A stretch of 28,988 nucleotides of DNA from a virus (lineage: Duplodnaviria > Heunggongvirae > Uroviricota > Caudoviricetes): IMG/VR virus record IMGVR_UViG_2778261696_000006; one strand, given 5' to 3'. Below are positions 173-7,247 of the stretch, one piece after another. The notes under the pieces were generated by a model. It did no database searches, was not told the origin of the DNA, and worked only from the letters and a program-made list of their open reading frames with translations. Within the stretch, counting starts at the first letter, position 1. Each line of letters begins with the position of its first letter. The position numbers were made by a program, and so were the translations under genes.

Positions 173-1222
173 TTATGCAACCTCTGCCGCCACATTGTCG
201 CCAACATACAGCGATAACGGATTGAGGGTTACAGCTTGTTCAAGGTGGTCAGGAGCAAAGTGCGCATACTTCATTGTTTCTCGAATATTGGCATGTCCGA
301 GAATTTTCTGCAGCACCAGTATATTCCCTCCGTTCATCATAAAATGCGCACCAAAAGTATGACGCAAAACGTGCGTCTTCTGCCCTTCCGTCAATTCAAT
401 ATTCGTTAGTTTGAGCATCTTTTTAAACTCCTGATAGCAGGGTTTAAACATTCTGCCTTGACGTACGGACAACTCGTCGTACAGCCATTTAGGAATAGGA
501 ACTGTGCGATTCTTCTTACCTTTGGTTTTGGTGAACGTTAGTTTATATGGAGAAAGTTGAGGTCGGGTCAATCTCTCCGCTTCCCCCCATCGAGCGCCGG
601 TTGCAAGGCACACCTTAACAATCATGGTGAGGTCTTCTTTGCCGTATTGCTCGCAGGCTCGAAACAGCTCCGGGAGCTGAGACAAAGTTAGCCAGGACAT
701 TTCTTTCTCAGCTTCTTTGAATACTCGGATCCCATCAAGTGGATTGGGTAGGCTCCACTCCCCTAACCGGCGGAGCTCATTAAACACTGCTTCTAGGTAT
801 TGTTGTTCGCGATTGACGGTTATAGGTTTGGCGATCCATTTCGAGGGGTCTTTATGATAACCATTGTCTATTTCACCACGTAATCGACGGTCACGATAAT
901 GAGCCCAGTCTTTCGCGGTAAGGCGAGATGCAATCGGGTCGCCAAGTCCATTACATACGATTTGAAGCTTTGCAAACCTCGACTTACTGGCGACTAACGC
1001 TTGACCGTGCAAATTGTGCCAAAGCTGAATAATCTCGCTTAAGCGTCGGCGGTCTTCTTTCTTGCCGAGCCACGGCTTATCTTCACTCTCGCTTTTGGTA
1101 AATGCTTCAAATGCCTCGGCCTCACCTTTGGTATTGAACTGCCGACGTATACGCCGTCCTTCTCGACCATTTGGATAGAGTTCACACAACCATTTTCCAC
1201 TTTTTTGTTTACTTACAGTCAT
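173..1222 (-). CDS. int: Phage integrase, tyrosine recombinase (P2/186 Int family)
   Basis: 349-aa ORF with ATG start; C-terminal HVLRHTF...MKYAH catalytic motifs typical of tyrosine recombinases; position at prophage end next to repressor. Confidence 0.9.
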   Translation of the reverse strand: MTVSKQKSGKWLCELYPNGREGRRIRRQFNTKGEAEAFEAFTKSESEDKPWLGKKEDRRRLSEIIQLWHNLHGQALVASKSRFAKLQIVCNGLGDPIASRLTAKDWAHYRDRRLRGEIDNGYHKDPSKWIAKPITVNREQQYLEAVFNELRRLGEWSLPNPLDGIRVFKEAEKEMSWLTLSQLPELFRACEQYGKEDLTMIVKVCLATGARWGEAERLTRPQLSPYKLTFTKTKGKKNRTVPIPKWLYDELSVRQGRMFKPCYQEFKKMLKLTNIELTEGQKTHVLRHTFGAHFMMNGGNILVLQKILGHANIRETMKYAHFAPDHLEQAVTLNPLSLYVGDNVAAEVA

Positions 1223-1246: not shown

Positions 1247-1585
1247 TTAATTACAAAGGGCTGTAGCGGCATCAATCACCGGTGAAATTGAAATTTTAAC
1301 GCCGTCATACTCAGGGTCATCCTTCCATACGTCATCTAAGTTAGACCCCTCCAGCTTTCCTGATTTAACAGCATCTACCGCCATGCCATTCAGAGGATAT
1401 CTATCATCAGTTTTGATGTCATACACAAAAGCATAAGCACGGTTAACACATGATACCTTTGCCTTTTCAAAGGTTAGAGGCCACTTGTCACCATATGCAG
1501 CGCCGTCTATCTCTTTAAACTTCTCAGCGGCTATGGCTGAGGAAGAAAGTGCAATGCAGACTATCGCAAATATAAACTTTTTCAT
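1247..1585 (-). CDS. Small secreted/periplasmic protein of unknown function (moron between cI and int)
   Basis: 112-aa ORF, N-terminal signal peptide MKKFIFAIVCIALSSSAIAAE, two Cys in mature part, strong RBS AAGGAG 6 nt upstream of ATG; resembles small YebY/DUF2511-type periplasmic proteins from memory only. Confidence 0.6.
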   Translation of the reverse strand: MKKFIFAIVCIALSSSAIAAEKFKEIDGAAYGDKWPLTFEKAKVSCVNRAYAFVYDIKTDDRYPLNGMAVDAVKSGKLEGSNLDDVWKDDPEYDGVKISISPVIDAATALCN

Positions 1586-1594
1586 TACTGCTCC

Positions 1595-2440
1595 TTAAAC
1601 ATGCTTTTCCAAAGTAAAAATAACCGCACCTGATGGTGTGATATCTGAAATATTACATTCAAACTCAGCAGACTTATTTGATAACCTGACCTTTCCGCCT
1701 GGCAACCTGATTACGTCAAAAACATCGAGTGCGCCATCAATACCAATAAGCCAGCGACCATTTCCTATCTTCGAGTTAGAACTATCAACAAGCCAAGATG
1801 TGCTCACACCATCAATAAACACTAAATCATCAGTATTTGATGGAACCATAGATATATCAGGAGTCCAGCGTCCGATATCTTTGAGTTCGCCCGCCTCGAG
1901 GCGGCACTTTCTAATCGTTAAAGCATTTGCCGGTTCACCATCATTACTGTTACGCATCTGGCCTTTTCCGGTTGATAACCATTCTAACGATACGCCAGTA
2001 TCAAGGGCGCAAGTGACAACCACGTCACCGGGGAAAAAATCGCGTCTAACCCAAGTGCTTATAGTGCCGGAAGATATACCTAATAAATCTCCAAGCTCTT
2101 TTTGCAGAGTAAAACCATACGCATCGAGAATCCGACGCAGAACCGCCCTCCCTCCATTTGCCATGATTTCATCATAGAGTTGCTTACCTTTAAGCTTAGT
2201 TTTCACCACTTCAAATCTTGCATTTGCAAGCTCACCATTAATTAGCCATCGCAGGTCAGCTCCAGTATCAAGAGCACACTCAACGAAAACGTTGCTAGGG
2301 ATTACGTTTCTAGCAAGCCAGCTACTCACGTTGTTTGCATGTATGCCAAGCCTTTCGGCTAGTTCCTTTTGCTGCTTAAAGCCGTATGCAGAAAGGACAC
2401 GTTCCAATGCGGCAGACGCATTAACATCATTTTTAGACAT
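1595..2440 (-). CDS. cI: 186-type CI immunity repressor with tandemly duplicated N-terminal HTH domain
   Basis: Track ORF 1595-2629 trimmed to internal ATG at 2440 (MSKNDVNA...); two copies of motif AYGF-QKEL-LGI...W...CALDTG-L-WL-G, C-terminal region resembles 186 CI C-terminal domain (...LPGGKV...FEC...). Confidence 0.75.
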   Translation of the reverse strand: MSKNDVNASAALERVLSAYGFKQQKELAERLGIHANNVSSWLARNVIPSNVFVECALDTGADLRWLINGELANARFEVVKTKLKGKQLYDEIMANGGRAVLRRILDAYGFTLQKELGDLLGISSGTISTWVRRDFFPGDVVVTCALDTGVSLEWLSTGKGQMRNSNDGEPANALTIRKCRLEAGELKDIGRWTPDISMVPSNTDDLVFIDGVSTSWLVDSSNSKIGNGRWLIGIDGALDVFDVIRLPGGKVRLSNKSAEFECNISDITPSGAVIFTLEKHV

Positions 2441-2543: not shown

Positions 2544-2572
2544 ATAATGCGATATGTCAGATGCAAAATCAA
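2544..2572 (-). promoter_or_regulatory. Putative leftward lysogenic promoter (pL-like), convergent with pR
   Basis: On minus strand TTGATT (2567-2572) -17 bp- CATTAT (2544-2549); would give face-to-face transcription with the pR candidate as described for 186. Confidence 0.25.
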
Positions 2573-2925
2573 TCTCGACGCACGACTCGCAAAACTCACA
2601 AAATCAAACTGTGCTGCTAGATCCAACACAGTTTGATGCCATCGTTACCGCCATGCTGCCAGCTCTACAGACAATGATTCGCTCCGCTATGTCAGACACG
2701 ATGACTGTGAAAGACTTCGCCGCTACTCGCGGTGTTAGCGAGCGTCTGGTCTGGCAATGGCTCGATGAGGGAGTCCTTCTCAAAGCTCCGACCAAAGACT
2801 TTTCCAACAAAGAGGAAGCTGCTAAACGAAGCCGAACCCTCGTAAATGTAAAAGCATGGCGCGATAAGCTGACTCAACAAGCGATTGATTGTCGCTACAT
2901 CGACCAGCGCACCGCTCTTAACTGA
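2554..2925 (+). CDS. Apl/Cox-like HTH protein (putative excisionase and switch regulator); start uncertain
   Basis: 123-aa ORF, RBS AGGAG 9 nt upstream, HTH-like segment TVKDFAATRGVSERLVWQWLDEGVL; first gene of rightward early operon, position equivalent to 186 apl / P2 cox. Confidence 0.5.
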   Translation: MSDAKSISTHDSQNSQNQTVLLDPTQFDAIVTAMLPALQTMIRSAMSDTMTVKDFAATRGVSERLVWQWLDEGVLLKAPTKDFSNKEEAAKRSRTLVNVKAWRDKLTQQAIDCRYIDQRTALN

Positions 2926-2957: not shown

Positions 2958-3467
2958 ATGTTTGATTTTCAGGTTTCCAAACATCCCCACTATGACGAAG
3001 CATGCCGCATTTTCGCACAGCGTCACAACATGGCGAAGCTGGCCGAGCGTGCAGGTATGAACGTTCAAACGTTACGTAACAAGCTCAACCCGGAACAGCC
3101 TCACCAGTTCACGCCGCCTGAATTGTGGCTGCTGACTGACCTGACCGAAGACTCAACCCTCATTGATGGTTTTTTAGCGCAGATTCACTGCCTACCATGC
3201 GTGCCGGTTAATGAGTTGGCTAAAGACAAATTGCAGTCTTATGTCATGCGCGCAATGCGTGAACTCGGCGAACTGGCGAGCGGCGCGGTATCTGATGAAC
3301 GTCTGACCACTGCCCGTAAGCACAACATGATTGAAAGCGTTAACTCCGGCATTCGCATGTTGTCATTGTCGGCTCTGGCGCTGCATGCACGTCTGCAGAC
3401 TAATCCAGCTATGTCGAGCGTGGTCGATACCATGAGCGGTATTGGCGCATCGTTTGGTCTGATTTGA
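2958..3467 (+). CDS. cII: 186-type CII regulatory protein
   Basis: Track ORF trimmed to ATG at 2958 (MFDFQVSKHPHYDEACR...), matches remembered 186 CII N-terminus and length (169 aa); RBS AGAGGGA upstream. Confidence 0.8.
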   Translation: MFDFQVSKHPHYDEACRIFAQRHNMAKLAERAGMNVQTLRNKLNPEQPHQFTPPELWLLTDLTEDSTLIDGFLAQIHCLPCVPVNELAKDKLQSYVMRAMRELGELASGAVSDERLTTARKHNMIESVNSGIRMLSLSALALHARLQTNPAMSSVVDTMSGIGASFGLI

Positions 3468-6777: not shown

Positions 6778-6811
6778 TTGCCAATACGTGCTACTGTATA
6801 AATATACAGTA
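6778..6811 (+). promoter_or_regulatory. SOS-regulated promoter: -35 TTGCCA (6778-6783) with LexA box TACTGTATAAATATACAGTA (6792-6811)
   Basis: Perfect 9-bp dyad arms CTGT-N8-ACAG matching LexA consensus, overlapping the -10 region 20 nt upstream of ATG 6831. Confidence 0.75.
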
Positions 6812-6830
6812 ACCCTGTGGGAGGGATTTC

Positions 6831-7013
6831 ATGGTTGGCGAACATTTCAGCCGAACGCAGCAAAAGTGGGCTTGTGTGCAATTTATTGCCGAGGTATCTC
6901 TGATTGCAAACTGCAAGCCATCAGACTTAAAGCTCGCGCTCACTCTCATTGCAGACCTAGCAAACAGCGAAAATAACGAAACCGAAGATGATAATTTTTA
7001 TAAGGCTGATTAG
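6831..7013 (+). CDS. LexA-controlled small protein, candidate Tum-type antirepressor
   Basis: 60-aa ORF with RBS GGGAGGG, immediately downstream of LexA box; positional analogy to the 186 p95/tum operon; no sequence-level confirmation possible here. Confidence 0.4.
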   Translation: MVGEHFSRTQQKWACVQFIAEVSLIANCKPSDLKLALTLIADLANSENNETEDDNFYKAD

Positions 7014-7016
7014 ATT

Positions 7017-7247
7017 ATGAGAATCAATATCACGTTGGATAAAGAGCAAAAATTAGGGCAACAGATCATTGATGCTTTTCAGAATGAAATAACACATCGA
7101 GTACAATGCGTTTTTCCTGCAACAAAAGTTAACGTTAAGAAAGGGTCAATGACTGGTGTAGAGGCTATCGGATTCGATAAAGAGGCGGACAGAGAAACAT
7201 TAGGCAGCATATTACAAGAGATTTGGGAAGACGATAGCTGGCGTTAA
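7017..7247 (+). CDS. dinI: DinI-family protein
   Basis: 76 aa, MRINITLDKEQ...LQEIWEDDSW resembles DinI family (MRIEV...ILQETWE); second gene of the LexA-box operon. Confidence 0.75.
   Translation: MRINITLDKEQKLGQQIIDAFQNEITHRVQCVFPATKVNVKKGSMTGVEAIGFDKEADRETLGSILQEIWEDDSWR

Follow-up and report, generated by a model that had tools for sequence, protein, structure and literature searches.

The DNA analyzed here is a single stretch of 28,988 nucleotides (the window), IMG/VR virus record IMGVR_UViG_2778261696_000006 (Caudoviricetes), which is a PSP3-like (Eganvirus, P2 family) prophage of Escherichia coli. Its immunity repressor, CI, carries two N-terminal DNA-binding heads in front of a C-terminal domain (CTD) of the phage 186 type. 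The first head, N-terminal domain 1 (NTD1), changes from one immunity type to the next together with the DNA of the early lytic promoter pR, and the second head, NTD2, is nearly invariant and is accompanied by a conserved DNA palindrome within cI and at the promoter of the late-activator gene. Comparison of these sequences leads us to propose, with a confidence somewhat above even, a division of labor in which NTD1 would read the immunity-specific pR operators and NTD2 would read conserved flanking and late-promoter operators.

The cI open reading frame (ORF) occupies positions 1595 to 2440 on the minus strand, with the ATG at 2440 and the stop codon at 1595-1597, and its product is 281 amino acids (aa) plus stop. 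The original prediction, made from the letters alone, was that this protein holds two consecutive copies of one DNA-binding module followed by a region resembling the C terminus of 186 CI, and both parts of that description were confirmed. The two CI halves aligned to each other by BLASTP without gaps and far above chance (31/61 identical, 51%, E=1e-23). The Pfam family PF07022 (Phage_CI_repr) matched two stretches of the protein with 160 bits (cut-off 22), and PF16452 (Phage_CI_C) matched residues 176 to 269 with 69 bits (cut-off 27, 4.6e-19). Custom hidden Markov models (HMMs) of the domains placed NTD1 at residues 8-71, NTD2 at 96-160, and the CTD at 174-280. On the DNA, all on the minus strand, NTD1 (residues 8-70) corresponds to 2231-2419, the inter-head linker (residues 71-95) to 2156-2230, NTD2 to 1961-2155, and the CTD to 1601-1921. 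The CTD is homologous to the 186 CI oligomerization (wheel) domain and also matched PDB entry 2fkd (E=1.3e-7). No S24 peptidase domain of the self-cleaving LexA/lambda CI type was matched among 17 Pfam families; the CTD is of the PF16452 type instead. The AlphaFold2 (AF2) monomer model (mean predicted local distance difference test score [pLDDT], 76.7) showed two five-helix bundles and a beta-rich CTD with a pLDDT of about 85. Linkers at residues 73-80 and 165-171 were of low confidence; residues 73-80 had a pLDDT below 50 and are predicted to be disordered, and a short helix was modeled at residues 86-95.

The solved structure of 186 CI (2fjr, 189 aa) matched residues 100-274 of the window CI only, i.e., NTD2 and the CTD (E=4e-21), which bears out the original statement that 186 CI has a single N-terminal module. 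All relatives of about 190 aa found in an exhaustive representative search likewise matched residues 95-280. It follows that the extra module is NTD1 and that NTD2 is orthologous to the 186 head. Because it has two heads per subunit instead of the one in 186 CI, we class the window CI as a variant inside the 186-type CI family (Phage_CI_repr plus Phage_CI_C).

The two heads show opposite patterns of evolution. The recognition helix of NTD2, SSGTISTWVRR, was invariant across three immunity types, whereas the NTD1 helix was HANNVSSWLAR in the window and SW9 (which share one immunity type), AKHSVSGWVQR in PSP3 and 613R3, and PSNSVSTWVQR in Midge and RCIP0057. Between types, NTD2 showed 28-34 synonymous and only 4-6 nonsynonymous codon differences (of 65), compared to 27-33 nonsynonymous differences (of 65) in NTD1. 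Within a type, NTD1 had 2 nonsynonymous versus 24 synonymous differences. Among representatives found by whole-protein similarity, the mean pairwise identity was 0.71 for NTD2, 0.48 for NTD1, 0.36 for the CTD, and 0.28 for the linker, and the variable positions of NTD1 clustered in its recognition helix. These patterns indicate that both heads are under selection, NTD1 diversifying between types and NTD2 being conserved by purifying selection. Immunity repressors do not usually have a DNA-binding head as their most conserved part. With their other NTD1 sequences and other pR DNA, PSP3 and Midge are presumably heteroimmune to the window phage.

A consensus scan of the DNA upstream of cI predicted a pR-like early lytic promoter on the plus strand at 2462-2490 (10/12 matches), with a -35 hexamer TTTACA at 2462-2467, a 17-bp spacer, and a -10 hexamer TATATT at 2485-2490. 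The hexamers and their position recur in about 60 related loci. A six-phage alignment divided the region between cI and the apl analogue into two halves: positions 2441-2496, from the cI start to the pR -10, are hypervariable and differ by immunity type, whereas about 2497-2600 is nearly identical in all six phages. NTD1 and 2441-2496 are proposed to form an immunity cassette of about 270 bp (about 2231-2496). In 50 nonredundant two-head loci, the distance between DNA segments (20 nucleotides [nt] upstream of the -35 plus the spacer) followed the distance between NTD1 sequences (r=0.82; partial r=0.74 given NTD2; permutation p=0.0005), but the 37 nt downstream of the -10 tracked NTD1 poorly (r=0.35). 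The original suggestion of a link to immunity specificity is supported by this result, with NTD1 as the hypervariable head.

The repeat finder detected an inverted repeat, AATTTTG-n8-CAAAATT, over the pR -35 at 2455-2476, which is a candidate NTD1 operator specific to the immunity type. Its arms are common to SW9 and locus L010, which have the same NTD1 helix, and to loci L031 and L009, which have related helices (H/Y-x-NN-V/I-SSWLAR) though the proteins are otherwise 58-71% identical. Most two-head groups have an inverted repeat of their own in the pR spacer or over the -35, and in many groups compact arms of 5-8 bp with a 0- to 4-bp gap lie in the spacer, like ordinary dimer sites. We infer from this comparison that NTD1 reads the pR operators. 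No convincing distal copies of the window-type pR motif, the NTD1 equivalents of FL and FR (the sites flanking pR in 186), were found in a k-mer search. A second inverted repeat, AACACCAA (2443-2450) with TTGGTGTT (2489-2496), was rejected as an operator: its CACC is the complement of the cI Shine-Dalgarno sequence, it is present in nearly all groups whatever their NTD1, and its count is within chance (7 of 100 shuffles). A GATC (Dam) site at 2481-2484, directly 5' of the pR -10, is kept in most two-head groups and is absent in the Midge and Kosakonia groups.

The conserved palindrome within cI, CTTGCATTTGCAAG at 2217-2230, encodes L71-A-N-A-R75, the first linker residues after NTD1, and is a candidate CI operator in an FL-like position. 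Its core, TTGCANNTGCAA, occurs exactly once in the window (2218-2229; 0.04 copies expected by chance) and is expected 0.02-0.04 times per genome. The core is exact at the linker position in the window, PSP3, and SW9 and has one mismatch in Midge. With at most one mismatch it was present in the linker-coding DNA of 51/68 two-head loci (27 exact), compared to 0/68 control segments of equal length. Against a background of 0.205, the two palindrome Ala codons were GCA in 43/43 and 36/43 loci (p=3e-30 and 1e-18, without correction for phylogeny), Leu was CTT in 18/19 loci, and Asn was AAT in 33/33. In the Midge, Brenneria, and Pectobacterium groups, the palindrome is retained in another reading frame and encodes a different peptide. 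The frozen synonymous sites and the retention independent of frame indicate that selection on the intragenic palindrome acts on the DNA.

The same palindrome recurs at the late-activator promoter. PSP3, SW9, Midge, and RCIP0057 all have AACTTGCAAATGCAA, with an exact core, between the end of gene D and the late-activator gene ogr/pag, and the PSP3 copy overlaps the -35 predicted for the ogr/pag promoter. In the prophage of E. coli EC12, the cI region of which is identical to that of the window, the palindrome starts 17 nt past the D stop codon and so falls just beyond the right end of the window. That end (28988) is the exact stop codon of gene D, and ogr follows within 100 nt in EC12. Near-perfect copies, CTTGCTTTTGCAAG and ACTTGCAAATTTAA, also lie upstream of the ogr-like gene in a distantly related Serratia prophage. 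A third, weak candidate is the degenerate half-palindrome TTTGATTATGCAAG at 2927-2940, in an FR-like position 18-31 nt upstream of the cII ATG. It has three mismatches to the 14-mer; its position is kept in 12 two-head loci and in single-head loci of the group termed NC3 below, and one-mismatch copies of the palindrome stand upstream of cII in loci L010, L014, L015, and L027.

The presence of the palindrome is independent of the NTD1 type and of the type of the Apl analogue, and it tracks NTD2. A TGTAAG right arm was found with NTD2 helices ending in SAW (3/3 genome loci and 23/30 IMG/VR loci) and never with those ending in STW. This association is suggestive, but we did not accept it as compensatory covariation between helix and palindrome, as the left arm mostly stays CTTGCA and the pairing may reflect shared ancestry. 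No isolated phage with the SAW variant or an NC3-type repressor was found in the phage collection searched.

Two groups of relatives have only one head and no NTD1: NC2, from prophages of Rahnella, Ewingella, and Chimaeribacter, and NC3, from P2-like contigs of IMG/VR. In both, the head shares about 85-90% of its residues with NTD2, including the recognition helix, and the CTD is of the same family. NC2 loci carry a TTGCA palindrome, ACTTGCAAATGCAAGT, in the pR spacer; NC3 loci differ in having other palindromes at pR. The occurrence of the palindrome at 186-like sites whatever the NTD1 or Apl type, the position of NTD2 as the only conserved helix-turn-helix (HTH) of the immunity module, and the NC2 palindrome together are the grounds on which we propose the division of labor. 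CI would oligomerize via its 186-type CTD and, like 186 CI, repress both pR and the late-activator promoter. The fast-evolving NTD1 would read operator DNA at 2441-2496, including the inverted repeat at 2455-2476, and the near-invariant NTD2 would read the fixed palindrome (C)TTGCAnnTGCAA(G) at the FL-like site in cI (2217-2230), at the pB-like site over the -35 of the ogr/pag promoter, and possibly at the degenerate FR-like site (2927-2940). Only the cassette of about 270 bp would then have to change for a new immunity type to arise, with the circuitry of the flanking sites and the late promoter left as it is.

Several observations weigh against this proposal. One comes from NC3 (loci L150-L167), whose heads are about 90% identical to NTD2 with the same helix, yet have four different perfect palindromes (ATCTCG.., ACCTTA.., ACCTCG.., and ACCTCA..) in the pR spacer, about 58 nt upstream of the cI GGK codon. 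Among repressors with identical HTH heads, the symmetry is kept while the letters change and only the CTDs differ, and the NC3 pR region has no TTGCAnnTGCAA at one mismatch or less. Since these palindromes vary under the same head, pR-spacer palindromes in the family are not all explained by recognition-helix specificity; either the recognition helix does not read the NC3 palindromes or specificity is determined elsewhere. Both the argument from NC2 and the assignment of pR palindromes to NTD1 are weakened by this. The Rahnella pR palindrome, in addition, may be an FL site by descent and not independent evidence, as these loci probably arose by loss of NTD1. The inverted repeat at the window pR is A/T rich, has an unusual center-to-center spacing of 15 bp, and is statistically unremarkable by itself. 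The covariation between pR DNA and NTD1 could reflect physical adjacency, i.e., linkage within a recombination cassette. The conservation of NTD2 is inflated in the 80 genome loci, which were retrieved by peptide patterns within NTD2, a particular bias that the representative set does not share. It could also reflect contact with the conserved TumA antirepressor, a second reason that is compatible with DNA reading.

In a rival reading, NTD1 would be the sole working DNA head, NTD2 would be conserved as the docking surface for the SOS-induced TumA or as a structural spacer, and TTGCAnnTGCAA would be read by some other conserved factor. We regard this as unlikely. The LexA box and tumA-like ORF at 6792-7013 speak for it, as TumA is 98% identical in the heteroimmune PSP3 and its target on CI must therefore be a conserved part, NTD2 or the CTD; the invariance of NTD2-type heads in single-head NC3 phages with differing pR palindromes points the same way. 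However, NTD2 retains a complete HTH signature, and the NC2 and NC3 repressors, which must bind DNA, have this head and no other. The palindrome, moreover, stands at the positions of known 186 CI binding and does not track the type of the Apl analogue, and Tum docking and DNA binding are compatible.

The original prediction raised the possibility of two reading heads per monomer on one operator. In such composite operators, both heads of one subunit would contact adjacent subsites of the same pR operators, and the second head would alter operator length and spacing instead of giving rise to two operator classes. The arms at the window pR, 15 bp apart center to center, are indeed spaced more widely than in a usual HTH dimer site, and the CGATC(T) adjoining the -10, kept in most two-head groups, could be a second subsite. 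However, no composite operator was detected at pR: there is no TTGCA-type half-site beside the variable arms, and many groups have the compact spacer arms described above. The conserved palindrome, for its part, stands alone in cI and at the ogr promoter, without NTD1-type arms. We consider composite operators rather unlikely on this evidence.

The converse assignment, with NTD2 doing all operator binding and NTD1 a diverging accessory (a decoy against foreign antirepressors or an exclusion determinant) that has no operator of its own, seems improbable to us. An NTD2-type head does suffice for a working switch in the single-head relatives, and the NTD1 operator is not definable unambiguously in the window. 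However, the strong purifying selection on NTD1 within a type, the concentration of its variable positions in the recognition helix, and its covariation with pR DNA all oppose an accessory role, and the window pR region has no TTGCAnnTGCAA at one mismatch or less that NTD2 could use. Finally, we hold it very improbable that the palindromes are not protein sites but hairpins of RNA or DNA, in the cI leader or mRNA, or chance survivals of recombination junctions. The NC3 palindromes do vary with their symmetry kept under an identical head, like stem-preserving evolution. However, TTGCAnnTGCAA is conserved in letters and not just in symmetry at two unrelated places, one of them an untranscribed promoter -35, a 6-2-6 palindrome is unable to form a stable hairpin, and the predicted folding of the window cI leader does not differ significantly from that of shuffled sequence (z=-1.7).

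The single-head relatives also bear on the origin of the two heads. The palindrome of NC2 loci precedes the GGK motif at the start of the head by 25 codons and has the frame found in the two-head genes, and tblastn alignments of the window CI to these loci start at residue 70/71 and run through the noncoding leader. The two-head linker is therefore collinear with the operator and leader of a single-head gene. The head-to-head spacing is 264 nt and the distance from pR spacer to palindrome is about 250 nt, which fits duplication or grafting of an operator-leader-head unit. The original prediction had been of a tandem duplication. The geometry, with an operator copy at the junction, agrees with a tandem duplication in the strict sense, but NTD1 is no closer to NTD2 than to foreign single heads: the NTD1-NTD2 identity within the clade is 29-50%, and that of NTD1 to heads of other single-head CI proteins reaches 54%. 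Fusion with a foreign head is thus a possible source of NTD1 instead.

In a neighbor-joining tree of NTD2 plus the CTD, NC2 and P0135 nest among the two-head proteins. Of 200 bootstraps, 162 recovered the joint clade, two-head proteins alone were monophyletic in 0, and NC2 was basal in 5. Considering that the Rahnella loci of NC2 are also decayed prophages without int, apl, and cII, secondary loss of NTD1 is, as far as this simple method can indicate, the more likely source of the NC2 single-head state. In Rahnella victoriana (locus L075, 2400-5000) and in loci L071-L087, the single-head NTD2-type cI abuts the host aroF-tyrA genes; on its other side are gene A, a DksA-like gene, and a 91-aa ORF, and this decayed P2-like prophage is kept across Rahnella species.

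A more far-reaching history, to which we give well below even odds, is that a repressor head and its operator were duplicated and then subfunctionalized as a pair. The duplicated or grafted unit, about 260 bp long, would have comprised pR operator, leader, and head, the old operator and leader would now be translated as the linker, and one wheel would carry two orthogonal sets of heads. The old operator would survive as an operator embedded in the coding DNA of the inter-head linker. Such a wheel could hold pR via NTD1 and the flanking and late-promoter sites via NTD2 simultaneously and so escape the competition for heads by which the 186 switch is shaped. Immunity could then evolve through exchange of the 270-bp cassette.

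The two-head architecture is standard in PSP3-like phages and recurrent in the 186-CI family. The full-length identity of the window CI was 92% to SW9 and SI22, about 73% to PSP3, SEN1, and vB_EcoM-613R3, and 67% to Midge and RCIP0057, all of them two-headed; all six PSP3-like phages have two heads. So do 120/120 of the closest protein clusters at 90% identity (118 with lengths of 276-289 aa, the two shorter being a 267-aa partial record and a 270-aa protein), 68/80 species-level genome loci, and 58/74 classified IMG/VR loci. Enterobacterial prophage loci with the double head number more than 100. Across the 186-CI family, however, the best 150 representatives at 50% identity included 12 two-head versus 69 one-head full-length proteins, and the true two-head share is lower, because the ranking favors two-head proteins. 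The double head is therefore not rare within the PSP3-like subgroup, where it is the common form, an outcome that the original prediction had named as counting against it; across the family it is a minority. The window CI itself has the NTD1-linker-NTD2-CTD order, a length within 276-289 aa, and the full-length identity of at least 60% that characterize the subgroup, and the companion genes of the subgroup (the DUF2511 gene, the PSP3-gp30-type Apl analogue, and TumA) are all present. It is an ordinary member of this two-head subgroup; the observation of the double head is real, but not of something rare. PSP3 was sequenced in 2002, and the architecture has been in GenBank since then. Nilsson et al. 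explained the additional length of CI in PSP3 by "a longer C-terminal domain" (2011, PMC3448106). No description of the double head of PSP3-like CI was found in the searchable literature, the coverage of which is incomplete, so that this is absence of evidence only. The comparative signal for subfunctionalized heads and for an operator inside coding DNA appears to be undescribed.

Outside this subgroup, the CI of Klebsiella phage 4LV2017 (Elveevirus) and the representatives P0138, P0180, P0193, and P0194 likewise have two PF07022 heads and a 186-type CTD. The two heads in 4LV2017/P0138, P0180, P0193, and P0194 are 54-69% identical to each other. In P0180, P0193, and P0194, each head has its nearest relatives among the heads of its own lineage (those of P0180 being mutually nearest), and in P0138 each head is nearest to single-head proteins. 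NTD2 and the CTD of 4LV2017 group with other single-head proteins, and its operators look 186-like (TTCAC/GTGAA). These affinities indicate that the two-head CI proteins of 4LV2017/P0138, P0180, P0193, and P0194 are independent duplications. The DNA of the 46-aa linker in 4LV2017 (locus L006) has GTTCAC half-sites like those of its pR operator, which hints that the operator was coduplicated there too. P0247 is an independent CI-like protein with three heads. P0224 and P0252, which also gave multistretch matches in the representative search, were set aside as generic multi-HTH proteins without the CI C-terminal domain.

The surrounding genes are those of a PSP3-like prophage. The DNA of the cI region is 100% identical in the chromosomes of E. 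coli EC12, EC15, and EC18, and in EC12 the prophage sits between rplS and yfiB. Gene order and proteins match Salmonella phage PSP3, and the order of int, cI, apl analogue, and cII is also that of 186. cI is the first gene of a leftward lysogenic operon (cI-DUF2511-int), opposite pR-apl-cII. The integrase gene int (173-1222, minus strand; PF24624 plus PF00589) is the last gene of this operon, and the 172 nt to its left (1-172) lie past the int stop codon towards the attachment site. Between int and cI is a DUF2511 gene (1247-1585, minus strand; YebY-like with a signal peptide), at the same place in PSP3, SW9, and Midge, which is probably a lysogenic-conversion or moron gene expressed from the prophage. 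The rightward early operon begins with the Apl/Cox analogue (2554-2925, plus strand, 123 aa; phrog_3554), followed by cII (2958-3467, plus strand; 186-type CP76 family, PF06892 at 1e-46) and replication gene A, also on the plus strand. Downstream, a LexA box, TACTGTATAAATATACAGTA (6792-6811), lies upstream of the tumA-like ORF (6831-7013; 60 aa, 98% identical to PSP3 TumA), which is followed by a dinI-like gene (7017-7247). Together these make up a SOS-controlled antirepressor module that is kept across immunity types.

No Pfam domain was found in the Apl/Cox analogue. The family phrog_3554 is annotated as of unknown function, and the match to the Cox-like excisionase family phrog_575 is weak and covers residues 48-110 only; the protein has an N-terminal extension of about 45 aa. 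The protein is 79% identical to PSP3 gp30, which was termed a singleton by Nilsson (2011, PMC3448106). Between pR and this gene are TGCAC direct repeats at 2509-2513 and 2519-2523, one helical turn apart. They accompany the PSP3-type Apl analogue, give way to AACAC-type repeats in loci where the Apl type differs, and are probably binding sites for the Apl analogue. Their covariation with the Apl-analogue type and their 10-bp phasing make them unlikely NTD2 sites; such phasing is typical of Apl/recombination directionality factor sites according to one report (PMC7498355). An inverted repeat inside the apl analogue (2603-2616/2624-2637; 14 nt, 93% complementary, 7-nt gap) was discarded as a candidate since its right arm is not kept in PSP3 or SW9.

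186 CI is among the few repressors whose switch is understood quantitatively, as a 14-mer wheel that wraps DNA and loops to FL and FR. If the division of labor is true, the two-headed CI would offer a natural test of the wheel model, with two orthogonal sets of heads that can be mutated independently. It would also explain how heteroimmune phages arise here without rewiring of late-gene control and would be a clear case of an operator kept within coding sequence. The minimal immunity cassette (about 2231-2496) could be put to use in the typing or engineering of P2-family prophages in Enterobacterales. Should the model be wrong, what is left is one more ordinary repressor of the PSP3-like subgroup.

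The closest well-studied system is 186 itself. Its GenBank record (U32222) lists CI sites at pR (three), FL (inside cI), FR (15-31 nt upstream of cII), and pB (two, at the late-activator promoter). In the wheel model, FL and FR loop to the CI 14-mer at pR, aiding repression and relieving pL (PMC3675496). The candidate operators described here, at pR, inside cI, upstream of cII, and at the late-activator promoter, correspond in position to 186 pR, FL, FR, and pB, and the Tum/LexA induction module is present in the window as well. In 186, FL, FR, and pB share the motif ATTCACn5GTGAAT, which is absent from the annotated pR site region. The corresponding motif here is TTGCAnnTGCAA, a difference that is expected because the head differs; the two CI proteins are only about 33% identical. 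In contrast to 186 CI, in which one head serves all sites, there are two heads per subunit here, so that a 14-mer would carry 28. The intragenic site also lies elsewhere, in the head-head linker DNA here and at the boundary of head and CTD in 186.

Within the PSP3-like group, the CI proteins of PSP3 (AAN08403, 286 aa), SW9, SI22, SEN1, Midge, RCIP0057, and vB_EcoM-613R3 share the three-domain architecture and gene order of the window, and these phages have the same Apl analogue, TumA, intragenic palindrome, and ogr/pag-promoter palindrome; PSP3 and Midge differ in NTD1 and in pR DNA. The general logic of an immunity repressor with an exchangeable specificity cassette of head and operators is shared with the lambdoid CI proteins (lambda and 434). 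However, lambdoid CI has an unrelated C-terminal domain, is induced by RecA-stimulated self-cleavage, and has one head per subunit and no wheel.

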